From an uncultured beta proteobacterium (GTDB lineage Bacteria > Pseudomonadota > Gammaproteobacteria > Burkholderiales > Casimicrobiaceae): a stretch of 24,000 bases of DNA. The position numbers and the translations under genes are program-made. Below the pieces are notes generated by a model. That model worked only from the letters and a program-made list of their open reading frames with translations. It was not told where the DNA came from and ran no database searches. Within the stretch, counting starts at the first letter, position 1. Every line of letters starts with the position of its first letter. The stretch is from positions 476,880-500,879 of the forward strand of contig CAVZQQ010000004.1 of NCBI GenBank assembly GCA_963777455.1, in the 5' to 3' direction. This document shows positions 6,018 to 19,434 of the stretch, piece by piece.

Positions 6018-6950
6018 ATGAAGCACCGATTCGCGATTTTTGTTTTGCTATTGCCGTGTGTACCTATCGGGACCGCGTGCGCCGGTTTCGATGAAGGTCG
6101 GAACGCACTCGAAAACGGCGATTACGTCACGGCGTTGACTGAATTACGGCCGCTCGCCGATCAAGGCCTCGCGACCGCACAAGTTCTGCTGGGCGAGATG
6201 TACTTCACCGGCCGAGGATTGCAGCGGGACGATGTGCAGGCGGTCGAATGGTTTCGCAAGGCTGCCGCCCAGGGCAATGCCACCGCCGAAAACGATCTTG
6301 GCAACATGTATTCGACCGGCCGCGGCGTCCCAGCGGACGACACGCAAGCGGTGGAGTGGTATCGGAAAGCGGCCGGCGAAGGTGACGCACCCGCCCAAGA
6401 CAACCTCGGCCTGAAGTATCTGCGGGGCCGCGGCGTTGCGCAGGACGATCTGCAGGCGTTCACCTGGTTTAGTAAAGCGGCTGATAACGGCGATGCCGAT
6501 GCGCAAACCAACCTCGGCTACATGTACGCCAACGGCCTCGGAGTGCCGCACGACGATAAGCAGGCGATGGAGTGGTATCGCAAGGCGGCCGCGCAGGGTT
6601 ACGCTCCCGCTCAACTCAACGTCGGCCTGATATACAGCGGTCGCGACACGGCGCAGGACGACAAGCAAGCAGTGGATTGGTATCGCCAGGCGGCCGAGCA
6701 AGGGCTTCCCGATGCGCAATACAACCTGGGCCTGATGTACCAGGTCGGCCGGGGCGTGCCACGAGACGAAGTGCTTGCCTACCTGATGTTCAGCTTGGCG
6801 GCCATTTCGGGAAACAGGGACGCCGCGCGCAATCGCCTCAGCCTGGTCCAGGGCTTTTCCATAAAGCAGATCGACAAATTGGACGAACTTGCGAAGATGT
6901 GGAGGCCAGGTAAACCACTTCCTACGGACGGCGCGATCCTGATCCGGTGA
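6018..6950 (+). CDS. Secreted Sel1-like repeat (SLR/TPR-type) protein.
   Basis: Signal peptide MKHRFAIFVLLLPCVPIGTACAG, followed by six to seven 36-aa Sel1 repeats of the form QAVEWYRKAAxQGxAxAQxNLGxMYxxGxGVxxDxx. GGAGA precedes the ATG. Confidence 0.9.
   Translation: MKHRFAIFVLLLPCVPIGTACAGFDEGRNALENGDYVTALTELRPLADQGLATAQVLLGEMYFTGRGLQRDDVQAVEWFRKAAAQGNATAENDLGNMYSTGRGVPADDTQAVEWYRKAAGEGDAPAQDNLGLKYLRGRGVAQDDLQAFTWFSKAADNGDADAQTNLGYMYANGLGVPHDDKQAMEWYRKAAAQGYAPAQLNVGLIYSGRDTAQDDKQAVDWYRQAAEQGLPDAQYNLGLMYQVGRGVPRDEVLAYLMFSLAAISGNRDAARNRLSLVQGFSIKQIDKLDELAKMWRPGKPLPTDGAILIR
6237..6773 (+). repeat. Five tandem ~108-bp coding repeats (one is 105 bp) encoding the Sel1 units.
   Basis: Units start at cag/caa-gcg/gca-gtc/gtg-gaa/gag-tgg (QAVEW / QAFTW / QAMEW / QAVDW) at 6237, 6345, 6453, 6561 and 6666. 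The DNA similarity between units is visible by eye. Confidence 0.85.
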
Positions 6951-7127
6951 GAAGGTTCCGTTCGCGCCGCTGAGGAGATCAAAAGACGCCTTTTGACTTT
7001 GCTCGTCACTTGCTAGTGCCGTTGACACTGAGGGCTGTGTCGCTTGCGTTCATCGCGCTCGGATTGTACGCGCTAATAAGAAGCAGGCCCTTCGTCATGC
7101 ACGCACGATGGCTAGATGCGTGGCTAC

Positions 7128-7343
7128 ATGGTTCTTGGAACGACGCAGGGCTCCTTTCATGAGGCCCTCTTGGCAGCGCTATCGGATCCCAATCTCAAGT
7201 TTGAAGAGGCGTTCTCCTCAATCCGGCTTCCATCCGTTCCTGCAGACCTTCGGGTCGCGGTGCATGGGAGGATCGACACGGGACAATTGTGGCTTCGGGA
7301 TAGGGGCCGACCAGGTTGCTTGCCGACATTGCAAGAGCCATGA
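7128..7343 (+). CDS. Hypothetical small soluble protein (weak call).
   Basis: This is the only protein-like translation in an otherwise stop-rich segment (MVLGTTQGSFHEALLAALSDPNLKFEEAFSSIRLPSVPADLRVAVHGRIDTGQLWLRD). Its TGA overlaps the ATG of the next mini-ORF (ATGA at 7340-7343). It has no convincing RBS, and I recognise no family. Confidence 0.2.
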   Translation: MVLGTTQGSFHEALLAALSDPNLKFEEAFSSIRLPSVPADLRVAVHGRIDTGQLWLRDRGRPGCLPTLQEP

Positions 7344-7480
7344 ACGCTTATTTCAACTCGGCGGAGGTCAAGACAAACATGACATCCGCCGTTGCCTACC
7401 TAATTCTTGGCGTGCTAATGAGTGCCTCAGTGATGACGCTCACGATCGCCACGGCGCATTCCTCTTTTCATCCCACATGA
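7340..7480 (+). CDS. Hypothetical 46-aa single-pass membrane peptide (weak call; not in the ORF track because it is under 60 aa).
   Basis: Hand translation: MNAYFNSAEVKTNMTSAVAYLILGVLMSASVMTLTIATAHSSFHPT. It has one clear hydrophobic helix. There is an alternative internal ATG at 7379 with GGAGG 11 nt upstream. Confidence 0.2.
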   Translation: MNAYFNSAEVKTNMTSAVAYLILGVLMSASVMTLTIATAHSSFHPT

Positions 7481-7782
7481 CGTTTACACCCGGGCGTGGG
7501 TTGATAGTGAAGACGCGGACGCCCTAGTTTAGCAACGGCATGTCCATGCCGTCCGGCGCAACGACTGTCTGGCGCGTCTGAAGGGGCGGTTCAAGTGCCG
7601 GCTCGATCTTAGTTACCCACGCCGGTGTTGGGTCGCGTGGGCGACAAACCTTCTCGGACATTCCAAGTTATGGCGCGCGCCATGGCGGACGCCACAATCC
7701 GGCCACGATCCAACCGTCTTTTGCTCCGACTTCTCCACAGTTCTCCGCTAACCTGGCGGCACGTCACTGCGGAGACACGGCG

Positions 7783-9156
7783 ATGCAAAAGGCGCTGTTT
7801 ATCAAAGCCGTCCTAGTTGCCATCCTTTTCTCGATCCTGCTTCTCCCTTTGTCCATGATTGGCGGCATTGTGACGGAGCGCGCTGCGCGGCAGCAGCAGG
7901 TGGCGCAGGATATCGCTGCTAGCAGTTTTGGCAAGCAAATATTTTCCGGAATCATACTGTCGCTTCCCTACGTCGAGGAATACGATGAGGAAGTAGCGGA
8001 CGGAAAGCAAAAGAGAATAGAAAAGCGGCGTATCGATCGAACCATCCGCCTGTTTCCGACCTCCAGCGAATTGAGCGGGATAGCTACCGTGGGAGAAAAG
8101 CATCGCGGTTTGTTCAAGGTGCGCATGTTTAATTGGCAGGCCAACGTGCGAGGGGATTTTATGTGGGATGGAAAGATTAGGTTCGAGCGCGCCCGCACCG
8201 ACTCGCGCATCTCTTGGGGCGCACCGATAATCAGTCTTGGTCTATCCGATTCGCGCGGCTTGGCGGGCGCACCCGCGCTCGAATTGGCGGGTCAGCGCAT
8301 CGCGCTTGAACGTGGGAGTGGCGTGCCGGGCATCACCAGCGGATTGCATGCCACGGCGACGCCCGTCGACCCGACCAAGCCACAGCGCTTGCCCTATTCG
8401 CTCGCAATCAATCTGCAGGGCACGGAGTCGCTTGGAATTGTGCCGATCGCCGACAATAACCGCGTGAACCTCAAATCCGATTGGCCGCATCCGAGTTTCG
8501 GTGGTCAGTTTCTGCCGCAACCGGACTCGCAGCAGATAAGAAAAGATGGATTTGCCGCGCAATGGACGGTGACCGCGCTTGCCTCCAACGCCCAGCAACA
8601 AGTTCAAGCCTTGTTCCATGGCGGCAAAGATGGGCTGGCATCGATCGAGCGACTTCAGGTCGGGTTCATTGAGCCGATCGACATTTATTCCATGTCTGAC
8701 CGCGCGCTCAAGTATGGCTTTCTGTTCATTGGCCTTACCTTCGGATGCTTCTTTCTATTCGAGGTGCTGAAGCGGCTTCCGATTCACCCGGCGCAGTACG
8801 CTTTGGTAGGCTTAGCCCTGGCGACTTTCTTTCTGTTACTGATCGCGCTGTCGGAACACGTCGCCTTCTGGATAGCCTATCTCAGCGCCGCAACGACCTG
8901 TATCGCGCTCCTCGGCTTTTACCTGAGCGCAGTTCTCCATGGCGTTGGTCGCGGTGTGTCATTCTCAATCATCCTGGCCGTGGTTTATAGCGCCCTGTAT
9001 GGCTTACTTGTGTCGGAGGACAACGCGCTGCTCCTGGGATCCTTATTGGTCTTCGCGCTGATCGGCACCGCGATGGGGCTGACGCGCAAAGTCAATTGGT
9101 ACGGCGTTGGCACGGACGACCGCGTGCTGGCCGCGCGGGCCTCCGGAGCAGATTGA
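7783..9156 (+). CDS. creD: Inner-membrane protein, CreD family.
   Basis: 457 aa. N-terminal TM LVAILFSILLLPLSMIGGIVTERAARQQQVAQDIAASS matches the CreD pattern (LIP..MI..L..ER..RQ..V..EIA.S). A large periplasmic middle part is followed by a C-terminal block of about 5 TM helices (YGFLFIGLTF..., HPAQYALVGLA...). Confidence 0.8.
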   Translation: MQKALFIKAVLVAILFSILLLPLSMIGGIVTERAARQQQVAQDIAASSFGKQIFSGIILSLPYVEEYDEEVADGKQKRIEKRRIDRTIRLFPTSSELSGIATVGEKHRGLFKVRMFNWQANVRGDFMWDGKIRFERARTDSRISWGAPIISLGLSDSRGLAGAPALELAGQRIALERGSGVPGITSGLHATATPVDPTKPQRLPYSLAINLQGTESLGIVPIADNNRVNLKSDWPHPSFGGQFLPQPDSQQIRKDGFAAQWTVTALASNAQQQVQALFHGGKDGLASIERLQVGFIEPIDIYSMSDRALKYGFLFIGLTFGCFFLFEVLKRLPIHPAQYALVGLALATFFLLLIALSEHVAFWIAYLSAATTCIALLGFYLSAVLHGVGRGVSFSIILAVVYSALYGLLVSEDNALLLGSLLVFALIGTAMGLTRKVNWYGVGTDDRVLAARASGAD

Positions 9157-9240
9157 ACCAAAGGATGAGGATGCTCACCCTGACAACAGGTGGCGACGTT
9201 GAGCCGAGACCGGCACCCTCGAGCTCGGTTAGTGCAGTTT

Positions 9241-9540
9241 CTACGGCTGTGGCGAGCCGTGTGGTGCGCCCGCAATTCCGAGTCGCTGCCGACGCTGTTG
9301 CGCGTCGGCTCGCTCCTGGGCTTCGCGCTTCTGCTGCTCAGCCTTGGCGCGCATCTGTGCTCGCGCACGGTCTTCTGACGTGGGGCCGCCATCGGGAGCG
9401 AGCCGCTTTACCTCGACCCCTTCCAGGCACGGCTTGTCGGAGTATTCGACCTTGCCGTTGCTCTCGCATCTGTACATCGTTTGTGCAACTGAACCCCCAG
9501 CCACCAGCAGACATACCCAGAATATCGTGTACCTGATCAT
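9241..9540 (-). CDS. DUF4124-domain secreted protein with a charged coiled-coil tail.
   Basis: I chose the start at the internal ATG 9540 (MIRYTIFWVCLLVAGGSVAQT signal peptide). The DUF4124 signature follows (MYRCESNGKVEYSDKPC), then the Arg/Gln/Glu-rich EDRARAQMRAKAEQQKREAQERADAQQRRQ. Confidence 0.7.
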   Translation of the reverse strand: MIRYTIFWVCLLVAGGSVAQTMYRCESNGKVEYSDKPCLEGVEVKRLAPDGGPTSEDRARAQMRAKAEQQKREAQERADAQQRRQRLGIAGAPHGSPQP

Positions 9541-9834
9541 CGGCGCCCCATTTGTGTTCGCCTGACGCTCCGCGGCAATCAACGACCGCCCACGGCAGGC
9601 CCGGACGATCGCAACCGGGTCAGCGCCCTGTTCCTAAACCGAGGAGCAATTACCTAGCCAGCGCCGCGTGCCGCGGCTCACTGGTCGATAACGGTCCGCC
9701 GTTCGCGCATCGTCCTACATGCGAATAGGCGTTTCGCCGATTGCTGCTGGGATTGCTATACGCGACATTTATGTTGGCGATGTTTGTGGTCATCGCAAAT
9801 GGACACTTTTCAACTGACACGCTGGAGGTTACCA

Positions 9835-10056
9835 ATGAAGGAATCGCGCACACTGTTCGCAATTGGGGTTGCGGCAGCCTTGAGTCTCCCTGCGCTTGCG
9901 GGGTGTGGTGGAATGTCGACGCGGGACCAGGACACCGCGATTGGCGCGGGTGCCGGTGCGGTAGGCGGGGCGGTACTAACCGGCGGCAGTGCCGTGGGGA
10001 CGGTCGGTGGTGCCGTGGTCGGCGGCGTCATCGGCAATCAAGTTGGTAAACACTAG
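9835..10056 (+). CDS. osmB: Osmotically inducible lipoprotein OsmB-like (glycine-zipper lipoprotein).
   Basis: MKESRTLFAIGVAAALSLPALAGC (lipobox LAGC), then RDQDTAIGAGAGAVGGAVLTGGSAVGTVGGAVVGGVIGNQVGKH. This is nearly collinear with E. coli OsmB as I remember it (RDRNTAIGAGAGALGGAVLT..GGVIGHQVGK). GGAGG lies 6 nt upstream of ATG 9835. Confidence 0.85.
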   Translation: MKESRTLFAIGVAAALSLPALAGCGGMSTRDQDTAIGAGAGAVGGAVLTGGSAVGTVGGAVVGGVIGNQVGKH

Positions 10057-10403
10057 CTAAAGCCCCGAGACCTCCAGTTCAAGTACACGGTCTGAGGACC
10101 GCGTTCGGGGCTTGGTAGCGACTGCGTACTGCCAGTCTTGCGGCCGGAAGTCCCCGTTAGTCCTCCCGCGCAGCCTACCTAGTCGAGGGGGCACGAACGG
10201 AGCACAAAGCTGCTGGGGCCCCCGTACCGAGTACTTGGCCGCAGTCACCGACTTACACCGTCTGCGGTGCCTCCCTGGCTAGAATTTCACCACTCTAGCC
10301 GGGTGTCCAGCTTGAGAATCGGATCTTCCCGGAGAGTACGCGGTGTTTCCACGCCGCGCAGGACGAACTGCACACGCGACGCGGAGCTGTCTGGGGCGCT
10401 GAA

Positions 10404-12752
10404 TCAGAACAGCTGGCTCTTTACACGTTCGGCCGATTTCTCGGCGCTGTCCGGCTTGACAGACTGATCTGATGGGGGCGGCGAAGGAATATCCTCTTGG
10501 TACACGTAATCGCCCATTCCCCCTTGCCCTCCTTGCCCGCTTTCGAGAATCTGGCCACTGGCCGAATTGATTGGTACCCGAACAACACCATCAGGGATCG
10601 ACAACGGAGTCTCTGGTTTTCCTTTGAGCACCGTCCCGATGTAGTTCATCCAGATCGGTAGTGCGGCCCGCGCGCCGACTTCGCCCTTTCCAAGCGACCG
10701 GGGCTGGTCAAAGCCGATCCAAGCGACTGCTACCAATTGTTGGTTGAACCCATCGAACCAAGCGTCGGTGAAATCGCTGGTTGTGCCAGTCTTGCCGGCA
10801 AGGTCGTGGCGGCCTAGTTGCATCGCGCGCGCTGCGGTCCCGCGTCTGATGACGTCTTGCATGATGTCGGTCATGATGAATGCATTGCGGACATCAATTA
10901 CTCTTTCGGCATCTTCACCGGCGCGCGCTGGTTCGGTTTCCTGCACTACGCCGCCGTCTCGGTTAACGATGCGCTCGATGAAGTAAGGGGTGATGCGATA
11001 GCCCGTATTGGCAAAGATCGAGTACGCTTGGGCCATCTGCAGGGGGGTGACCGAACCCACCCCGAGCACCATGGTCAGGTAAGGCGGCACCTGATCGGCG
11101 GAAAAACCAAAGCGGGTCGCATAATCCCGCGCATACGGGATCCCGATAGACTGCAGAATGCGGGCCGACGCGACGTTTCTCGACTTGACCAGGGCCGTGC
11201 GCATGCTGATGGGGCCAAGGAAATCATGTTCGTAATTGCCCGGTGTCCACGGCTTCCAACCCGTTTCCTCCGAGTCAAAGGTTATGGGTGTATCGGCAAT
11301 GATCGTGCCGGGCGTAAACCCCTTTTCCAACGCGGCCGAATAGATGAAAGGCTTGAAGCTCGAACCTGGCTGACGAAGGGCCTGGGTCACATGATTGAAC
11401 TTGTTGCGGTCAAAGTCGAAGCCGCCGACCAGTGCATGGAGCGCTCCGTCGCGTGGATCAATCGAGACCAGCGCCGCTTCCACTTCCGGCAGTTGCGAAA
11501 TCTGCCAGAGCCCCTTGGCGTCCCGCTCAACCCGGATTAAGGAGCCTCGCAGCAGGCGCTGCTTTGGCGCGGCTTTCGCGCTCAGTGCCCGTTGCGCGAA
11601 TTTGAGACCCTCGCCACGAACGTCGATGCGCTCGCCGCCCTTGAGATAGACCTTGACCGCCGTCGGGGTTGCTTCGAGCACCACGCCAGGCTTTAACCCG
11701 TTGACCTCGTGCTCGTCGTCCAATGCGTCTCGCAGGGCGTCATCGAGCGCTGCCTGATCGAAGGGCAATTCGACGAAGCCCTCAGGACCGCGATAGCCGT
11801 GGCGTCGGTCATAGTCTAAGACGCCTTGGCGAACCGCCTGGTCAGCGGCGAGCTGGTCCTCAGCACGAATCGTGGTGTACACATTCAATCCCTCGGAGTA
11901 ACCCGCCTCCTGGTAACGCTCGAAGATCGCCTGGCGCGCCATTTCCGCTACATAGTCCGCATTCACCGCAAAGTTATGGCGGTCGCCACGCACCTTCAGG
12001 GGCTCCTGTCGTGCCGCCCGGTATTCGTCGTCCGAGATGTACTTGAGGTCATGCATTCGCCGCAGGACGTATCCCCGGCGCTCGGTCGCACGCTCCGGCG
12101 AGACCACCGGATTGTCATGGGCGGGCGCTTTCGGGAGCGCGGCAAGAACTGCCATTTCCGCCAAGCTCAGCTTGTCGAGAGGCTTGCCGAAGTAGACTTC
12201 GGCCGCGGCAGCGAAGCCGTAGGCGCGCTCCCCGAGGTAAATCTGGTTAACATAGAGTTCCAGAATCTGATCCTTGCTGAGGGTGCTCTCGATCTTCAGC
12301 GCCAGCAGTGCCTCGTTGAACTTCCGCCTAAAGGTCTTTTCCCGACCCAGAAAAAAATTTCGCGCCACCTGCATGGTGATCGTGCTCGCCCCCTGCACCT
12401 CGCCGCCACCCGCAATGTCGGCCCAGGCAGCCCGCAGGACACCGGCGTAATCGATGCCCCCATGCTGATAGAAGCGGTCATCTTCAGCAGCCAAAATTGC
12501 CTGACGCAGCTTTTGCGGCACGGTGCCGATCTTTACTGTAGTGCGCCGCTCTTCGCCGAACTCGCCGATTAGCACGCCGTCGGCTGTGAATACGCGCAGT
12601 GGTAATCGCGGCTGGTAGTTGGTCACACGATCGAGGGACGGCAGACTCGGAAAGATCAGGATCACAGCAAACAGTGCGGCTAGGCCCACAACCACCCCGA
12701 GGCCCACCAAGACGGCCACGCCATATCCGAGGCGCGCGAGCATTGGGTTCAT
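10404..12752 (-). CDS. mrcA: Penicillin-binding protein 1A (bifunctional glycosyltransferase/transpeptidase).
   Basis: 782 aa and intact. GT51 motifs: AAEDDRFYQHGGIDY, GASTITMQVARN, RRKFNEALLALKIE. Transpeptidase motifs: SSFKP (SxxK), KSRN (SxN), GKTGTT (KTG). N-terminal membrane anchor. Confidence 0.95.
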   Translation of the reverse strand: MNPMLARLGYGVAVLVGLGVVVGLAALFAVILIFPSLPSLDRVTNYQPRLPLRVFTADGVLIGEFGEERRTTVKIGTVPQKLRQAILAAEDDRFYQHGGIDYAGVLRAAWADIAGGGEVQGASTITMQVARNFFLGREKTFRRKFNEALLALKIESTLSKDQILELYVNQIYLGERAYGFAAAAEVYFGKPLDKLSLAEMAVLAALPKAPAHDNPVVSPERATERRGYVLRRMHDLKYISDDEYRAARQEPLKVRGDRHNFAVNADYVAEMARQAIFERYQEAGYSEGLNVYTTIRAEDQLAADQAVRQGVLDYDRRHGYRGPEGFVELPFDQAALDDALRDALDDEHEVNGLKPGVVLEATPTAVKVYLKGGERIDVRGEGLKFAQRALSAKAAPKQRLLRGSLIRVERDAKGLWQISQLPEVEAALVSIDPRDGALHALVGGFDFDRNKFNHVTQALRQPGSSFKPFIYSAALEKGFTPGTIIADTPITFDSEETGWKPWTPGNYEHDFLGPISMRTALVKSRNVASARILQSIGIPYARDYATRFGFSADQVPPYLTMVLGVGSVTPLQMAQAYSIFANTGYRITPYFIERIVNRDGGVVQETEPARAGEDAERVIDVRNAFIMTDIMQDVIRRGTAARAMQLGRHDLAGKTGTTSDFTDAWFDGFNQQLVAVAWIGFDQPRSLGKGEVGARAALPIWMNYIGTVLKGKPETPLSIPDGVVRVPINSASGQILESGQGGQGGMGDYVYQEDIPSPPPSDQSVKPDSAEKSAERVKSQLF

Positions 12753-12869
12753 CAGCCGCCGATCGAGCCAAGGTACTGTGCCGGCTCGCGCAATCGGATC
12801 GAGTTACCGACGGCGCGTATCGAGCTGGCGCACCAGAAGGGCTCGAGCATGAGAGTCTGGGATCGGCCT

Positions 12870-14999
12870 CTAGTCTGCGGTGTGTTGCAATCCGACGACC
12901 TCTCGCTTGTCGGCATCGATGGTGAAGCCGACGTGATCGCCAGGATTGAACCCCAAGAGCAACTCCGCCGGCGCAACGAGGTAGCTCATGGTCATCGCCG
13001 CCATGAACCCTGGAATCTCCTTGTGCGCGATGATGATGCGCCCGGCGCGGCGATCCACGGCTTTGAGAGTGCCGGAGCCCCGGAACAGGTGGGCCGTAGG
13101 CGCTGTCCCTCCGTTACCGACACCGCTACGCGGCTGTTTCTCCACGGGCGCAGCGGCGGTGTCCGTGCCCGAAGCGCCGTTTTCAAGCGCCGTGACCATA
13201 GCCTCGGTTCCGGGGCTGCCGTGCCCGACGACGATCAGCCCGTGCATGCCCATCTGTTCATGCGTAGGCACATGGCAATGGAACTCGAGCGTCACGTCGT
13301 GATCGGGCGTGACGAACCGGCCGATTGTCGTTCCCGGCCCGCGGAAATCCAGCATAAACATCGGATCGAGCCCCGGGATCATCAGGTCGTGTCGGATCTC
13401 GTCGCTATTCTCGAGCACGACCTCGACGGTCTGGCACGGCTCGGCATGGATCACGCGCGGCTCGAAGCCGTAGACTTGGCCCGCGCCGGCGGCGCCGGTT
13501 CCCTCCCTGATCCGCACGCTAAGCGTACTCCTCGGCTCCTTGCAGGAGGTCGCCACGACCTTGTGGGTCTCCATTGGATCGGGCTGTCGCTGCTCGTCGC
13601 CTGTCGCGTCGCGAACCGGGAAGGGAGGATCGCCAGGCTCGTCACGCATCGCAGCCATCTGCTCGTGATAGATCGACGGATCGAATACCGGCACCTTGCC
13701 CTGGTAGTACGCCGGATCGAAGAATCGCTTCAGGTTCGTCGCTACCTTGGGTAGTCCGTCCGCGTCCTTGAACCCGTCGTAGACAATCACGGTTGCATCG
13801 CCGCCGGGACTTATGCCGTGGTTGGTCGCCGCACGTTCCGTATGGTCGTGCATCAGCCAGACGCCGGGTCCCGACGCATAGGTGCTGTCGCTGCCGGGGC
13901 GCAGCTCGAGGTCGGCGCGCTGCGCGGGTCCGATCGTCACAACGTCTCGCATCACGCGGGCGGCCTCCGGCACCGCATAGCCGTCGAGGGCGGTAACGAT
14001 GAAATGGTGGCCATGCGTGTGCAGGTTGATCGTGCTCTCGCCGGCATTGAGCACGCGCAGCAGCACACGGTCGCCCGCAGCCACTTCGATCGGGGTATCG
14101 CGCAGGGTGAACGGAAAGGAGCGGCCGTTGAGCAGAAAGACGTCTGGACGGCGTTGCGTGATGTCATAGTCGCGGTGCATCGCTCTCTCGATCTGCATCG
14201 GGTCTTTGTAGAGCGTGGGTATCCGATGCAGCCGGTCATCGACGTCCTGGTAGACCAGCGAGTACTCGCGCGTATAACCCTCCTCCCGCTCCGCCGCGGC
14301 GAGGTCCGGAATGCGTCCGGCGCCGACGATAAGATGGCGGAAATAGTTGTGCGGGCGGTTCGGTTCGACGATCAGCATCCCAGCGAGCCCCATGAGGATA
14401 TGCACGTCCGGTTGCACGTGGCAGTGATAGAAGAAGGTCCCGGGGTGCTGCGCCACGAACTCGTAGGTGAACGACTTGCCGGGCATGACTGCCGTCTGGG
14501 TGATATCAGGTACACCATCCATGGCGTTGGGATGGATGGTGCCGTGCAAGTGGATCGTGTGCGGAAAGTAGTGCGTGTTCTCCAGGATGATCTTGACGTG
14601 GTCGCCCTCTTCCACCCGGATGGTGGGGCTCGGTGCGCGCGCGAGGGAGACCATGCCGTCGCCAGGCGGCGAGAACACCCAGAAGGTAACGAATTTTCCG
14701 GGATAGACTTCCTGTTGAATCTCGTCGACTTCCAGTCGGATCGTGACCTCATCGGCGTCGCCGTCGCCGTCCAGATCACGCCCGAGCACGACCGCATCCG
14801 GCGCTGCGCCTGGAATGACCTCGCGACACATGGTCCGGCGATCTGCGTCGCAGGCCGGCAGGCCCGCTGCACTATCCTCTTGGCCCACAATAGACAGGGC
14901 GCCGAAAGCGTTTGGCACCACCGAGCCCGAGACCAGCGCAACCGCAAGTGCCGTGGCGGCCAGCAGCCCGCTCATGCCGCTGTGGCTCGGAGGTTTCAT
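12870..14999 (-). CDS. Secreted four-module copper protein: two-domain multicopper oxidase + additional type-1 cupredoxin domain + C-terminal CusF-like domain.
   Basis: 709 aa, intact, with a Sec signal (LLAATALAVALVSGSVVPNAFGA). Domain 1 (aa ~85-212): HTIHLHG and YHCHVQPDVHILM. Domain 2 (aa ~285-410): NLHTHGHH and WLMHDH. Domain 3 (aa ~485-595): IRHDL ... FHCHVPTHEQMGM. C-terminus (aa ~638-705): GSGTLKAVDRRAGRIIIAHKEIPGFMAAMTMSYLV..GDHVGF, which resembles CusF-type Cu(I)-binding domains. Confidence 0.85.
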   Translation of the reverse strand: MKPPSHSGMSGLLAATALAVALVSGSVVPNAFGALSIVGQEDSAAGLPACDADRRTMCREVIPGAAPDAVVLGRDLDGDGDADEVTIRLEVDEIQQEVYPGKFVTFWVFSPPGDGMVSLARAPSPTIRVEEGDHVKIILENTHYFPHTIHLHGTIHPNAMDGVPDITQTAVMPGKSFTYEFVAQHPGTFFYHCHVQPDVHILMGLAGMLIVEPNRPHNYFRHLIVGAGRIPDLAAAEREEGYTREYSLVYQDVDDRLHRIPTLYKDPMQIERAMHRDYDITQRRPDVFLLNGRSFPFTLRDTPIEVAAGDRVLLRVLNAGESTINLHTHGHHFIVTALDGYAVPEAARVMRDVVTIGPAQRADLELRPGSDSTYASGPGVWLMHDHTERAATNHGISPGGDATVIVYDGFKDADGLPKVATNLKRFFDPAYYQGKVPVFDPSIYHEQMAAMRDEPGDPPFPVRDATGDEQRQPDPMETHKVVATSCKEPRSTLSVRIREGTGAAGAGQVYGFEPRVIHAEPCQTVEVVLENSDEIRHDLMIPGLDPMFMLDFRGPGTTIGRFVTPDHDVTLEFHCHVPTHEQMGMHGLIVVGHGSPGTEAMVTALENGASGTDTAAAPVEKQPRSGVGNGGTAPTAHLFRGSGTLKAVDRRAGRIIIAHKEIPGFMAAMTMSYLVAPAELLLGFNPGDHVGFTIDADKREVVGLQHTAD

Positions 15000-15027
15000 T
15001 CGTAGTCCGACGTTCCTAATACGAACA

Positions 15028-15471
15028 TCATTGTCTGCTTGGCATGCCGTTCATGTTCTGCATTCTGGCCGCGCCGCTCTTCGGCTTTGCGGTGGATTCG
15101 CCCGTCGGCATCTGCTTCATACCGCCGCTCACCAATTGCATGTAATGGAAGTGCAGGATGTCAGCAGCCGTGGCATAGCCGTCGGCAGAATCGGCCCGAG
15201 CGATGCCCCGTGCCAGCGCATAAGGGCTGGCCGACTTGGCGCAGTCACGCCGCGCCCGCTTTAGCAAACTCTCGGCCTCGCTAACGAGTGCGTGGACCTG
15301 ACTTAGCTCGTCCTTCGCCATCATCGTGTCCATGCCCTGAAGGTCTCCGGTTATCTTGTCGATCGATCGTTGCGCCCTGGCAATGGGCGTCGAGCAATCG
15401 ATCGGCTGCTCTGCCGCCGCGGTGCCGGCCATGACAAAAACGGACATTACGAAAAGAAGCAGGGAACGCAC
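15028..15471 (-). CDS. Secreted helical protein with a Met/His-rich C-terminal tail (function unknown; possible copper accessory protein).
   Basis: GTG start at 15471 with a strong GGAGGAGG 5 nt upstream. Signal peptide MRSLLLFVMSVFVMAGTAAA. Two Cys residues (DCSTP, RDCAKS). Tail: HFHYMQLVSGGMKQMPTGE..ARMQNMNGMP. It lies 28 nt upstream of the copper-oxidase gene on the same strand. Confidence 0.6.
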   Translation of the reverse strand: MRSLLLFVMSVFVMAGTAAAEQPIDCSTPIARAQRSIDKITGDLQGMDTMMAKDELSQVHALVSEAESLLKRARRDCAKSASPYALARGIARADSADGYATAADILHFHYMQLVSGGMKQMPTGESTAKPKSGAARMQNMNGMPSRQ

Positions 15472-15657
15472 TCGAGCCTCCTCCAGGGAGATGATTAGAA
15501 CTCTATGGTGCTTCGTTGCACGGCATCATTGTGCGAAATGACTCGCCCTGCTGGGGACCATAGCGATGGCCGCCCATCTTCTGATGATTCGCACTGACGT
15601 GCTGAGTGTACCGGCAACACAAACTGGCCTGCGGCGCGAGGGATTAGGTGCGGTAGT

Positions 15658-16167
15658 TCACTCAACCCAGCCACCCCAGAAGAGCGATGGAGGCGACTTC
15701 TCCAGCCAACTGGACGGATAACGGACTGTACCGGGGAGGACACGACTCCAAGCAGCGGCAATCAGGGCCAGGATCAAGACGCCCAAGCCAACCGGGTCCA
15801 AGACGGCAGACAGGCTTGCATGGGCGTGAACCATGATCAAGGGGTTGGCCCCGGCAGGGGGATGAACTGTCTTGGTCGCAAGCATGACAATGAGAGACAA
15901 CACGGTCGCGAGCAGGTAAACCCAAGTAGCATCCCCAAAGGCTTGGAAACAGAGAACGCCCATGAGCGCGCCACTGAGGTGGCCACCAAATAACGCGCGT
16001 GGCTGGGCCGCTGGTGCACGAGTAAGCCCGAATAGGAAGACGGCGGTTCCTCCCAATGATGCGAGCAATAGCGGGGATGAGGGTGGGTCGACCAGCCAGA
16101 ACACCAAACCGAGGCTTGCCGCCGCACCGGCCGCACACCAGGCGAGACGCGCAAGTGCTCTTGCCAT
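15658..16167 (-). CDS. HPP-family integral membrane protein.
   Basis: PLLLASLGGTAVFLFGLTRAPAAQPRALFGGHLSGALMG and TKTVHPPAGANPL (the family-defining HPPAGA motif). I chose ATG 16167 (MARALARLAW) because AGGAGA lies 9 nt upstream; the ORF-track start at 16206 is the alternative. Confidence 0.8.
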   Translation of the reverse strand: MARALARLAWCAAGAAASLGLVFWLVDPPSSPLLLASLGGTAVFLFGLTRAPAAQPRALFGGHLSGALMGVLCFQAFGDATWVYLLATVLSLIVMLATKTVHPPAGANPLIMVHAHASLSAVLDPVGLGVLILALIAAAWSRVLPGTVRYPSSWLEKSPPSLFWGGWVE

Positions 16168-16198
16168 GAATCGAAGTCTCCTGGTGCGGGGGAGGCTG

Positions 16199-16216
16199 TC
16201 GAGCATATATGCTCTC
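16199..16216. promoter_or_regulatory. Perfect 18-bp palindrome TCGAGCATATATGCTCGA in the HPP/marR divergent intergenic region (candidate operator).
   Basis: I verified by hand that it is its own reverse complement. Its near edge is 31 nt upstream of the HPP ATG, and the AT-rich centre could double as a -10 element. Confidence 0.5.
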
Positions 16217-16548
16217 GATTCCAGCTCTGCTTATGGGCGCATGACAGATTATCGCGGCGGGTTCGAGACTCTTTGACCGTCCAGCTGCCACGTGAGCTTT
16301 AGCAAAGGCGCTTCATCGACTGGGACGTGGGCAGTTCATCCACTGGGTTGACCCCCGATTCGACTGTGCTTCTGCGCTGCGCGCCCGGAGAGCGGTACAA
16401 AAGCTCTCGCTCCTGCCATGCGCTCAGCATGGCTGAATCGTACACCGGACCCCCTGTCGCCGACGCTCCAATTTCAGCTACACTGTTTTGGGACAAAGTG
16501 ATTTCCACGTCCGCTGCAATATCACCAAACACCACTCAGCGCAAGCGA

Positions 16549-17124
16549 ATGGGCTACTCAGATCCCAAGAAATCACGACGGCATCCTCCTGGGTCGCCGA
16601 CGCCCAGCACGGCACCTGCAGGCCCGCGCCCGGTAAGGCTGGTTGGTAGCAGCAGCTCGAAATCCGCTCGGGCCCTGGCGGTTCTACAACACATCCGCGA
16701 ACTCCTTCGCGTCTCTCAACAACACTTTCAGCGCATCGAGGCTCGCTGCGGCGTGAGCGGCGCGCAACTCTGGGCCCTGGCGGAACTCCAGGCGCGGCCT
16801 GGAACAAAGATCTCCGAGTTGGCGATCGCCTTGTCGGTGCATCTGTCAACCGCGAGCAATCTTCTCGACCGGTTGGAAGCTAAAACGCTCATACGCCGTC
16901 AACGCGGTAAAGAGGACCAGCGCACCGTACGCGTCTACCTTACGCCCGCGGGCCAGGGCGTTCTGCGCAGAGCACCCAAACCGGTTGAAGGGATCATCCC
17001 CGATGCCCTTCACCGCATGCCGCGCGATGCGCTCGGTCGACTTGACCGCGATCTGGAGAAACTGCTGCGGCTGGCGAGAGTTCGCGACCAGCGCGCAGCG
17101 ATGAAGCCGCTTGCCGACCTCTGA
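16549..17124 (+). CDS. MarR-family transcriptional regulator.
   Basis: Winged-helix region: GVSGAQLWALAELQARPGTKISELAIALSVHLSTASNLLDRLEAKTLIRRQRGKEDQRTVRVYLTPAG. I chose the start at in-frame ATG 16549. The longer ORF-track extension from 16327 is low-complexity and not MarR-like. Confidence 0.85.
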   Translation: MGYSDPKKSRRHPPGSPTPSTAPAGPRPVRLVGSSSSKSARALAVLQHIRELLRVSQQHFQRIEARCGVSGAQLWALAELQARPGTKISELAIALSVHLSTASNLLDRLEAKTLIRRQRGKEDQRTVRVYLTPAGQGVLRRAPKPVEGIIPDALHRMPRDALGRLDRDLEKLLRLARVRDQRAAMKPLADL

Positions 17125-17146
17125 TGAATGGCCAGAACAGGTGCTC

Positions 17147-17180
17147 TTGCAAGAATTAATATTAGGGAATAGTATATTCC
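17147..17180 (+). promoter_or_regulatory. Promoter/operator-like element, copy 1: TTGCAA-N17-TAGTAT, overlapped by the dyad GGAATA-gta-TATTCC.
   Basis: A sharply AT-rich island in GC-rich DNA. The -35/-10 spacing was counted by hand. The 11-nt core AATAGTATATT (17168-17178) is identical to 18353-18363. A degenerate extra half-site GAATAGTG lies at 17189-17196. Confidence 0.5.
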
Positions 17181-17220
17181 TCGTAAGAGAATAGTGTTTC
17201 ACGTATAGACATACTCCCAC

Positions 17221-17257
17221 GCGGGCTGGTCAGGCACTGTCAGCCCGCGCACTTTTT
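17221..17257 (+). terminator. Intrinsic-terminator-like hairpin with a T-tract.
   Basis: GCGGGCTG-(12-nt loop)-CAGCCCGC followed by gcacTTTTT. It lies 97 nt after the marR stop, about 45 nt after the predicted start site of element copy 1, and 47 nt before ATG 17304. Confidence 0.6.
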
Positions 17258-17303
17258 GTCAGCCTCCGTGCTGAATGCAGGGTGCGGGCGAGGATTGATT
17301 GCC

Positions 17304-17663: not shown

Positions 17664-18188
17664 CTAGTCATCGGGGTAGACCAGGTCAGCACGCCGATTC
17701 TGCGACCAGCATGATTCCTCGCTAGCCGTACACCGAGGTTTCTCCTTGCCGAAGCTGACCGTATCGATCTGGCGGTCTTCGGCGCCGAGCACCGTAAGGT
17801 ATCGCTTGACGGCGTCAGCTCGCCGCTGGCCGAGGGCCAAGTTGTACTCGCGGCTGCCACGCTCGTCGGTATTGCCCTGCACGGTCACCTTGGTGCCCGG
17901 ATGTTGGCGAAGGTAATTGGCGTGAGCTTGGAGCAGGGGTCGGTCACGGTCCTTGATCAGCGACTGGTCGTAATCGAAGAAGATGCTGCGCTTGGAAAGA
18001 ATATTGCTTGGGTCTTTCAAAGGGTTGCCCACCGTTCCCGGGCCAGCGCGGTTGGGCGCGGTGGTTGCCTCGGTGGGTTGCTGCGCGACTGGCGCCGGCG
18101 CCGCAGCCGGAGCGGCTTCCTTCGTCGGTGCATTGGAACAGGCCGCTGCCAGCAGTACCGACGCCAACAGGAAAATACGGTAATACAT
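17664..18188 (-). CDS. Peptidoglycan-associated lipoprotein (Pal)-like OmpA-family lipoprotein, outside a tol-pal context.
   Basis: Lipobox LLAAAC, a Pro/Ala linker, then the OmpA-C-like domain FFDYDQSLIKDRDRPLLQAHANYL..VTVQGNTDERGSREYNLALGQRRADAVKRYL..VSFGKEKP..CWSQNRRADLVY. GGAGGAG lies 4 nt upstream of ATG 18188. Confidence 0.85.
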   Translation of the reverse strand: MYYRIFLLASVLLAAACSNAPTKEAAPAAAPAPVAQQPTEATTAPNRAGPGTVGNPLKDPSNILSKRSIFFDYDQSLIKDRDRPLLQAHANYLRQHPGTKVTVQGNTDERGSREYNLALGQRRADAVKRYLTVLGAEDRQIDTVSFGKEKPRCTASEESCWSQNRRADLVYPDD

Positions 18189-18330
18189 GACGCTCCTCCA
18201 TCAAGAGTTCGTGAACCACCGCTGCGCCGACGCCACGCGACACGGACTCCTGGCTACCGAAGGCTACGCGTCGGGCAGCGATCGGCCTCAAGGTTCTCGA
18301 TACCTTGACAACACGGTGTAAGCTGGAAGT

Positions 18331-18366
18331 TTGCCAGAAATAAGTATTTGGTAATAGTATATTAGG
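18331..18366 (+). promoter_or_regulatory. Promoter/operator-like element, copy 2: TTGCCA-N18-TAGTAT, with the dyad TAATA-gta-TATTA.
   Basis: Hand alignment to 17147-17180 gives 28 identical positions of 33 with one 1-nt gap, including the identical 11-nt core at 18353-18363. The opposite strand also offers TTGCAG-N18-TATACT pointing at the Pal-like gene. Confidence 0.5.
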
Positions 18367-18373
18367 TACAAGT

Positions 18374-18888
18374 ATGATCCTGCAAGCCATGTCTGCACTG
18401 TGGGCGGTTCCCGCTCTTTGGAGTTCGGCGAGGCGCTTTAACTATCAAGCGCAGGACTGTCCGCTGACGCTGCGTCAGGCTGCCGACGGGTACCGACGGG
18501 GGCACCCGGAAGCACTGCAGGCGGATAAGCTTAGTGCGGTGAGCGCTGCGCTATTTCGTTCGCATGACATCTCTGCCATGTCACCTTCGGCCTTGATACA
18601 ACTGTTCGCGATGAGGTGTTGACCGATTTCTGGACAATCTTTGGCACCGACATCGGTCTGCACCGATACCTCCACTACCTCCGCGAGACGCCGGAGACGA
18701 AGGAACTCCATCGTGTGATTGGCTATGACAGGGCAACGCTCTGGACCATCCGGGCCGTCCCGCAGATCGGCAAGGCATCGCCGCGAAGTAGGCGCATGTC
18801 CAAGAGGTGGCCTTGGGTTGTGCCAGGCTCGTTCTGGATGCAACCGCTGAATACGTTACGCCGGGAATTTAATATCCGCGTTATTTGA
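18374..18888 (+). pseudogene. Coq4-family protein homolog; frame broken at 18575-18576, inside the HDxxH motif.
   Basis: ORFs 18374-18622 and 18616-18888 join. Removing 'gc' (18575-18576) gives LFRSHDISHVTFGLDTTVRDE, which is HDxxH-x11-E, the spacing I recall for the Coq4 zinc motif. The C-terminus FWMQPLNTLRREFNI resembles the Coq4 tail (W...L..LR.EL.I). The start codon is uncertain (ATG 18374 or 18389). Confidence 0.5.
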
Positions 18889-19110
18889 ATCCTTGAACAA
18901 CACTGACCCGACGTTGTAGTTGAAATGTCAATCGCCTTCCGACACTTCACGCCGACGTCGCTTAGGCGGTGGCCGGTTCGACGGGCCACTATCGGAAGAG
19001 GGCGATCGCCCCGATTGCGACTGCTCACCCTTCGCCACGAGCGGCAGAAGGACTTCACGGCGAACGAGCACACGAGGGAGCTAGTCCGAGCCCCCATTTT
19101 GGAGACCACC

Positions 19111-19434
19111 ATGAAATCAGCAAGCCTCTATCCAGCAGCACTTGGCGTCTGTTTGACCTTCCTGGCGTTATCGGTAGGTGCCCAGACCGCCAGCGGCAAC
19201 GCGTCACCGGCAGCCACCGGCAGTTCGACTATGGCGCCAGCCGCGAGTACTCACAAGCACCACGCGATGGCTCATCACCAAACCCATGCGAAGCACATGC
19301 ACATGGGCGCGGGAGCATCCGGCAGCAATCAAGACGAGGCATATCGCGGCGCGCTGAAGAGTTGCGTCGAAGGGCCGCAGACACAACGGGACGGCTGCCT
19401 GGACGATGCAATTGCGCGATTTGGTCGTTCATAA
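19111..19434 (+). CDS. Small secreted His/Met-rich protein (probable periplasmic metal-binding protein).
   Basis: ATG 19111 has GGAGA 5 nt upstream. Signal peptide MKSASLYPAALGVCLTFLALSVGAQT. HKHHAMAHHQTHAKHMHMG cluster. C-terminal Cys pair: KSCVEGPQTQRDGCLDDAIARFG. Confidence 0.65.
   Translation: MKSASLYPAALGVCLTFLALSVGAQTASGNASPAATGSSTMAPAASTHKHHAMAHHQTHAKHMHMGAGASGSNQDEAYRGALKSCVEGPQTQRDGCLDDAIARFGRS

Follow-up and report, generated by a model that had tools for sequence, protein, structure and literature searches.

A secreted three-helix protein and a four-module multicopper oxidase beside a MarR|HPP pair: a probable junction of two units with separate histories

Copper oxidases and the locus in question

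The periplasmic copper oxidases CueO, PcoA and CopA are three-domain multicopper oxidases (MCOs) with Met-rich inserts, exported by the twin-arginine translocation (Tat) system, served by a separate carrier and controlled by CueR or CopRS. The type-C two-domain MCOs, with the Nitrosomonas europaea enzyme (PDB 3G5W) and the metagenomic mgLAC (2ZWN) as solved examples, are built from two cupredoxin domains; their type 1 (T1) copper Cys is flanked by two His of the trinuclear cluster, and HxH pairs occur in both domains. HPP proteins are membrane proteins of a family that includes plant and cyanobacterial nitrite transporters. The locus we describe here brings an MCO and an HPP protein together. 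It lies in a 24,000-nt stretch of DNA (the window) from an uncultured beta proteobacterium of the family Casimicrobiaceae (GenBank assembly GCA_963777455.1, contig CAVZQQ010000004.1, positions 476,880 to 500,879 of the forward strand), and coordinates given without a locus label are those of the window. A first-pass annotation had grouped four genes here into one regulon and suspected that it dealt with nitrite, nitric oxide (NO) or hydroxylamine.

Three of the four genes lie on the reverse strand. They encode an oxidase fusion of 709 amino acids (aa) at 12870-14999, a secreted 147-aa protein, which we call p147, at 15028-15471, and an HPP protein, whose open reading frame (ORF) of 182 aa occupies 15658-16206. 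A MarR-type regulator points the other way, in an open frame of 265 aa on the forward strand (16327-17124) that opens at GTG 16327. The oxidase and p147 are 28 nt apart (15000-15027), p147 and HPP 186 nt (15472-15657). Our ORF scan returned the same four frames, strands and gaps as the first-pass annotation, and Pfam agreed with its gene identities (Cu-oxidase domains, TM_HPP, MarR). What changed is the grouping. We read the locus, with a probability of roughly 60%, as a junction where two units meet, each with its own history: a resident MarR|HPP pair and an acquired p147-oxidase cassette that encodes a periplasmic Cu(I) oxidase and a copper-handling partner.

Two gene sets, two distributions

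Among 68 genomes of the genus, HPP orthologs occur in 12 and the fusion oxidase in two, namely the genome of the window (G000) and that of a sister species (G008). The divergent MarR|HPP pairing is conserved in six genus genomes, and G018, G013, G076, G079 and G067, five genus genomes other than that of the window, have the pair without the fusion oxidase. On the MarR side the surroundings hold: the order DUF3014, p169, Pal, ORF, MarR|HPP is kept in G008, G018, G076, G079 and G067. On the far side of HPP they do not. With G018, G079 and G067 the homology runs no further than the HPP stop codon, and with G076 it ends about 40 nt past it. Beyond HPP come BatD genes in G018, a short-chain dehydrogenase/reductase gene in G013, a VTT/DedA gene in G076 and a Rieske protein in G079, and in these four no remnant was found there of the fusion oxidase or of the second copper oxidase that we describe below from G067.

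These unequal counts, the recurrence of the pair on its own and the place where synteny breaks are the reasons why we see two units with separate histories. The MarR|HPP pair would be the edge of a genus-conserved chromosomal block. The four genes are not one conserved unit, for the trio of HPP, p147 and oxidase is found in G000 and in one G008 copy only, and its halves live apart elsewhere. Neighbourhood conservation thus upholds one part of the first-pass grouping, the linkage of p147 to the oxidase, and takes away the other: the trio with HPP is largely unconserved in related genomes.

The sister species has its own story. G008 carries two copies of a block made up of DUF3014, p169, Pal, ORF, MarR|HPP and oxidase, one in L111 (contig 4, ~6043-12469) and one in L013 (contig 7). 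One of the two has lost 585 nt, from just past the HPP stop codon into the 3' end of p147, and only the last ~55 nt of p147 are left.

The resident pair itself is well defined. The HPP protein matches TM_HPP (PF04982) at 5.1e-34 and 117.6 bits, against a cut-off of 27.2, and belongs to a short form of the family (169-182 aa) without CBS domains. It has an alternative start at ATG 16167, preceded by AGGAG, which is the start that the first-pass annotation had used. The regulator matches Pfam MarR (PF01047) at 6.5e-12 and 45.6 bits (cut-off 24.6) and falls well below any NCBIfam equivalog model, with a best score of 37 bits against a cut-off of 200. On sequence conservation its start is most likely ATG 16549, giving a 191-aa protein at 16549-17124 on the forward strand: four relatives share this ATG, the ORFs of L200 and L201 open with it, and an ATG further upstream (16429) is not conserved. 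The regulator has a single Cys, in an EARCGVSG motif, which is kept in the window and in all five genus orthologs aligned.

The p147-oxidase cassette across genomes

The other unit travels widely. An oxidase-anchored scan, with one genome per species, gave 518 stretches with oxidase relatives, from which 79 loci were fetched. They span Proteobacteria, Methylomirabilota, Acidobacteriota, Gemmatimonadota, SAR324, Acidimicrobiia and some archaeal bins. Upstream sequence was sufficient in 72 of them, and in 33 of these the gene directly before the oxidase, in the same orientation, is a p147 homolog. The reverse test started from p147 alone: 80 metagenome loci were fetched, 62 of them with at least 500 nt downstream, and in 56 of the 62 the gene directly downstream is the oxidase. 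The two genes are a tight two-gene cassette found across many phyla. Otherwise the flanking genes are unrelated from one locus to the next. An HPP profile run over 161 loci (1.27 Mb) found HPP only in two sister-species loci and in none of the 159 loci outside the genus.

Transposases sit next to the oxidase in L112 and L194, and copper genes lie near some cassettes (CopC in L195; Cox11, SCO1 and PCuAC in L112). L112 is also the closest cassette outside the genus: its oxidase is 79% identical in protein sequence, and nucleotide similarity to the window is confined to the two coding regions. Because the genus relatives diverge after HPP, and because similarity to L112 is so limited, we take p147 and the oxidase for an acquired cassette at a variable junction. 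It would have been gained horizontally and inserted directly after HPP in the ancestor of the G000 species and its sister. We had also considered that a promoter was carried along with the cassette, an idea that we dropped for lack of any nucleotide similarity to L112 outside the coding regions.

Several loci have details of their own. In L194 (4515-7881) a DDE transposase stands between the oxidase and an upstream 114-aa gene, and in L049 (859-4038) the oxidase is flanked by two copies of p147. In loci of the Methylomirabilota/Rokubacteria type (L196, 4259-8085; L024, L071, L116, L117 and L121-L123) one or two extra small ORFs precede the cassette, some with an HSVHHL-type motif. The Methylomirabilota-type loci also have a divergent MarR gene upstream of the cassette, which in L196 adjoins a CLC channel gene. 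That regulator belongs to another subfamily. We rejected it as an ortholog of the window MarR, since a different MarR of G000 matches it best (5.7e-18 and 1.1e-20, against 5.7e-6 and 9.9e-5); this better match adjoins a branched-chain amino-acid ABC transporter in G000.

A four-module oxidase

The 709-aa protein matches Cu-oxidase_3, Cu-oxidase_2, Cu-oxidase and CusF_Ec in Pfam, together with a weak cupredoxin match. Its core, residues ~58-410 (13770-14828, reverse strand), is of the type-C two-domain class, as first proposed. The closest solved relatives are 3G5W (1.4e-37) and 2ZWN (3.9e-36), each aligned in two stretches that cover both domains. The oxidase stays below the cut-offs of TIGR01480, with 79 bits against 479, and of the curated NirK model TIGR02376, with 60.8 bits against 296 (63.8 bits in the genome search).

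We aligned 26 homologs at 55-92% identity and assigned ligand roles from the alignment to 3G5W and from general knowledge of MCOs. In domain 1 H147, C193 and H200 of the T1 site are invariant, and at least 90% of the 26 sequences have the fourth ligand, M203. Eight His of the trinuclear cluster are invariant too: H150, H152, H192, H194, H327, H329, H384 and H386. By this assignment the cluster is predicted to be split between domains 1 and 2, with the T1 site in domain 1.

To this core two further modules are added. An extra T1-type cupredoxin domain covers residues ~480-595 (13215-13562, reverse strand), as placed by alignment and model. It has a second set of T1 ligands (H537, C575, H580 and M585, all invariant), and the flanking H574 and H576 are retained. 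Among solved structures it comes closest to the C-terminal, T1-bearing domain of the small two-domain laccases, and the HCHVxxHxxMGM motif lines up between the two. The domain thus keeps the invariant His-Cys-His triplet of a cluster-binding MCO domain, and partner HxH motifs are not evident in it. The triplet may be a remnant, or it may serve as one more copper site.

The last module is a CusF/SilF-like oligonucleotide/oligosaccharide-binding (OB) domain at residues ~638-706 (12882-13088, reverse strand), with a CusF_Ec match of 1.2e-12 and 48 bits against a cut-off of 27. It aligns residue by residue with SilF and with the C-terminal domain of SilB. The SilF ligands correspond to H659, M669 and M671, and M666 takes the position of the capping Trp; all four are invariant. 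The AlphaFold model of the full-length protein shows four folded modules, with disordered stretches at 420-477 and 609-635 linking them. The titles and abstract openings of the literature that we retrieved do not mention a two-domain MCO fused to CusF.

The window oxidase has no twin-arginine motif in its signal peptide, and the motif is missing from most of the 25 homologs aligned with it (RR occurs in P0032, P0066 and P0104). Metallation of the oxidase must therefore occur in the periplasm.

The secreted partner

Neither Pfam nor NCBIfam has a match for p147, nothing meaningful came from PDB sequences when they were searched with a profile, and a fold search returned generic helical bundles only (best E 0.035). 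Its relatives are plentiful. At E <= 0.001 the database searched contains 909 family members, every one of them named 'hypothetical protein' or 'uncharacterized protein' and none with a Pfam domain.

The gene has the strong ribosome-binding site that was attributed to it, GGAGGAGG, 5 nt upstream of a GTG start that is ATG in the closest relative. Its product consists of a Sec-signal peptide, a conserved three-helix bundle of ~90 residues and a tail. That tail had been described as rich in Met and His. It is Met-rich but not His-rich, the His lying just before it in HFHYM. AlphaFold models the bundle at a predicted local distance difference test score (pLDDT) of 82.7, with helices at 27-44, 53-79 and 83-115. 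In an alignment of 26 homologs C26, K39, M47, H107 and M111 are invariant. In the subgroup to which the window protein belongs, a second Cys, C77, stands in place of the HNH motif that most members show, and the Met-rich tail is added. The predicted helix order and the alignment suggest two metal-binding sites, one at one end of the bundle (M47, M51, H107 and M111) and one at the other (C26 with C77 or His). p147 belongs to a family, still without a name, of small secreted proteins that combine three helices with Cys, His and Met residues.

Palindrome, spacers and flanking genes

A palindrome was reported between MarR and HPP, and it is there, as a perfect 14-mer and not as an 18-bp element: GAGCATATATGCTC at 16201-16214, overlapping the first in-frame ATG of the HPP ORF. 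It is a candidate MarR operator. In the window it is unique, with 0.4 matches expected at up to three mismatches, and a search for a second copy of it or of its core, upstream of p147 and in the rest of the window, found none. The perfect form is specific to G000; both G008 copies retain a shorter core, GCATATGC, and G018 has a degenerate form of it. We set aside another, weaker inverted repeat, CCATGC-N5-GCATGG at 16416-16432, which is only partly kept in relatives; by our estimate about one such repeat is expected by chance in the region. A stretch of ~80 nt just upstream of the probable MarR start (16450-16530) is strongly conserved in both G008 copies and in G018, far more so than the remaining intergenic region, and it may hold the marR promoter or operator.

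The 186-nt spacer between HPP and p147, read on the reverse strand, has no recognisable sigma-70 promoter, nor was a sigma-70-like promoter found anywhere in 12700-17300 by a scan limited to the sigma-70 consensus. Downstream of the oxidase the strand continues into mrcA (PBP1A; 10404-12752, reverse strand; Pfam Transgly, Transpeptidase and PCB_OB), which begins after 117 nt, and no terminator was found between the two. We mention mrcA for context.

On the MarR side the conserved syntenic block (17664-19434) holds an OmpA/Pal-like lipoprotein gene (17664-18188, reverse strand; Pfam OmpA) and the gene for p169, a secreted His/Met-rich protein (about 19111-19434, within 18925-19434, forward strand). 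p169 is also syntenic with Pal and HPP in G338, which belongs to a different genus of the same family, and it is present with or without a copper oxidase. The remaining genes of the window are housekeeping genes (PBP1A, CreD, Sel1, SspB, a GST/SspA-like protein, cytochrome b, an aldo-keto reductase and a major facilitator superfamily transporter).

How the locus might work, and competing explanations

Our picture of the two units at work is as follows. MarR, with its one Cys, probably acts on the 14-bp palindrome at the start of HPP and thereby represses HPP as well as its own gene. The oxidase would be exported by Sec and, by analogy, is probably a trimer. Its CusF domain would capture periplasmic Cu(I), and electrons would pass by way of the T1 centres (the tethered cupredoxin, domain 1 or both) to the trinuclear cluster, where O2 would be reduced to water; the net reaction would turn Cu(I) into Cu(II). 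The C-terminal CusF-type Cu(I) site argues for copper as the substrate, and the invariance of the CusF ligands, of the eight cluster His and of both T1 sites likewise suggests a periplasmic Cu(I) oxidase. p147 would be a dedicated periplasmic copper-handling partner that either loads the apo-oxidase or feeds it Cu(I). The coupling of the cassette to MarR|HPP would be a local juxtaposition, possibly a functional one.

A number of observations weigh against this picture. The model of the full-length oxidase is a monomer of only moderate quality (pLDDT 68). No p147 is found at 39 of the 72 oxidase loci, mostly those of more distant oxidase clades, and p147 is therefore not universally required. 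To our knowledge the substrate of type-C two-domain MCOs has not been established, and it may be phenolic, Fe(II) or Mn(II). The spacer between HPP and p147 has no terminator-like structure (fold z-score +0.6). In the G008 copy with the deletion the oxidase follows HPP after 91 nt, with no upstream region of its own. Lastly, in G067 (L203, contig 11, 3278-8315) a different copper oxidase stands 40 nt after the MarR|HPP pair. It is a Tat-signalled, Met-rich, three-domain, CopA-like protein of 495 aa, ~27% identical to the fusion oxidase, and it is followed by a convergent gene for a 660-aa CopD-cytochrome c fusion.

The last three of these points, with the shared strand, mean that a real local coupling of the two units has room. 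One can picture a local copper-related regulon in which the MarR-controlled HPP promoter drives a single HPP-p147-oxidase transcript, perhaps reaching into mrcA, so that the cassette has been wired into an older MarR/HPP stress response and HPP itself has a copper or oxidant role. Such co-transcription is possible, the lack of any sigma-70-like promoter in 12700-17300 suits it, and so do the His/Met-rich p169 within the same conserved block and the one conserved Cys of MarR; two unrelated copper oxidases at one spot are more than we would expect from random cargo, in a sample of six contexts. Yet the palindrome occurs only at HPP and not upstream of p147, which has its own strong ribosome-binding site behind a long spacer; of the six distinct contexts that follow HPP in the genus, four have no copper gene; the cassette occurs elsewhere without MarR or HPP; the promoter scan saw only the sigma-70 consensus; and copper genes are such frequent island cargo that two cases at a variable junction may be chance. 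On balance we hold the single regulon to be a possible explanation but a doubtful one, and the caution about co-transcription in the first-pass annotation was well placed. A bolder version makes the short HPP and the single-Cys MarR a copper- or oxidant-responsive membrane module, no nitrite transporter, whose promoter was co-opted twice in the genus for unrelated periplasmic copper oxidases (here and in G067). We give this little credence.

A different challenge concerns the chemistry. The cassette oxidase could be laccase-like or an Fe(II) or Mn(II) oxidase, with the CusF domain and p147 supplying nothing but its own copper cofactors. The second-best structural relative, 2ZWN, is a laccase, one database labels a homolog 'manganese oxidase', and Sec export makes built-in copper acquisition plausible; but the database labels lack experimental backing, CusF-type domains occur in known Cu(I)/Ag(I) efflux and detoxification systems (as the SilF and SilB matches recall), and copper-handling genes lie near some cassettes. 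We consider this unlikely, if a shade less so than the co-opted module. Less probable than either is the chemistry first suspected here, in which HPP moves nitrite in or out and the substrate of the oxidase is nitrite, NO or hydroxylamine, as is suspected for the oxidase beside nirK in Nitrosomonas. It can point to the N. europaea enzyme as the nearest relative of the oxidase core, to the nitrite transporters among HPP proteins, and to one locus of the same order, G029 (L110, 1945-10174), where a denitrification-type cluster (qNor, a 355-aa two-cupredoxin copper protein, cytochrome c, an FGE-sulfatase-domain protein, SCO1 and NnrS) has a convergent HPP-CBS gene beside it. That HPP, however, is of the CBS-bearing form and only 35% identical to the window protein. 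HPP adjoins none of the 159 cassettes outside the genus, a copper oxidase lies beside none of 26 order-level HPP loci (and, within the genus, beside HPP only in G000, G008 and G067), and no nitrite or NO gene turned up among the HPP neighbours scanned in those 26 loci and in ten genus loci. In the assembly, which is 78% complete, nothing passes the NirK threshold, ammonia monooxygenase was not found, and the cytochrome-d1 matches are only faint. The fused CusF site, for its part, indicates copper. The suspicion of nitrogen-oxide chemistry has thus found no support, and our preference stays with two units of separate history and a cassette for Cu(I) oxidation.

Two side observations belong here. 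The HPP gene of G067 appears frameshifted near its C-terminus. And G000 has a second MCO, a three-domain enzyme of 484 aa at a distant locus (L199, contig 4, 7826-9280) whose neighbours have no Pfam match; we rejected it as a displaced ortholog of the G067 oxidase, to which it is only 26% identical.

What the locus may teach

The regulon hypothesis should not go forward as a nitrite or NO system. What deserves attention is the cassette, for p147 and the four-module oxidase make up a widespread, unstudied variant of periplasmic copper oxidase systems. An MCO with a built-in candidate Cu(I) carrier and a dedicated partner is a testable case for cuprous oxidation by type-C two-domain MCOs, and it bears on how Sec-exported multicopper oxidases get metallated in the periplasm. 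The MarR|HPP junction, for its part, offers a small natural experiment on how acquired metal-resistance cassettes might become wired into resident regulators. Were the MarR-HPP module to prove copper- or oxidant-responsive, it would be the first link of the bacterial HPP family to copper homeostasis.

Relation to described systems

The classical copper operons are the natural yardstick. Among the 22 window ORFs scanned with Pfam there is no CopR, CusR or CueR regulator and no CopB, CopC or CopD protein, as had been noted at the outset; more broadly, the marks of a cop/pco or cue/cus operon (a three-domain Met-rich oxidase, CopB/C/D or CusCBA, and CopRS, CusRS or CueR) are missing from these ORFs, and none of the traits listed above for CueO, PcoA and CopA is present here. 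The likeness to those oxidases and their CusF and PcoC carriers is one of principle: a Cu(I) binder is proposed to hand Cu(I) to an MCO, and the H/M/M ligands of CusF are conserved.

The regulator resembles the divergent regulators of the MarR/OhrR/SlyA style in its winged-helix MarR domain, divergent layout, palindrome at the start of the presumed target and single conserved Cys. The HPP protein shares the transmembrane domain and HPP motif of its family, PF04982, and differs from the nitrite transporters in being the short form without CBS domains, with no nitrogen-oxide genes nearby in genus members.

Copper nitrite reductases with a tethered cupredoxin or cytochrome (for example 2ZOO and 6TFD, both weaker matches) combine a trimeric two-cupredoxin core with a tethered electron-transfer domain. 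The oxidase shares this as a design principle only; where they have a type 2 (T2) nitrite site, its core has the full eight-His trinuclear cluster. The closest kin remain the type-C two-domain MCOs 3G5W and 2ZWN, whose two cupredoxin domains, His-flanked T1 Cys and paired HxH motifs are all found again here, at a core identity of ~40-45%. To that shared core this oxidase adds ~300 fused residues, a second T1 cupredoxin and a CusF-like domain, and its conserved partner is p147 in place of cytochromes or nirK.

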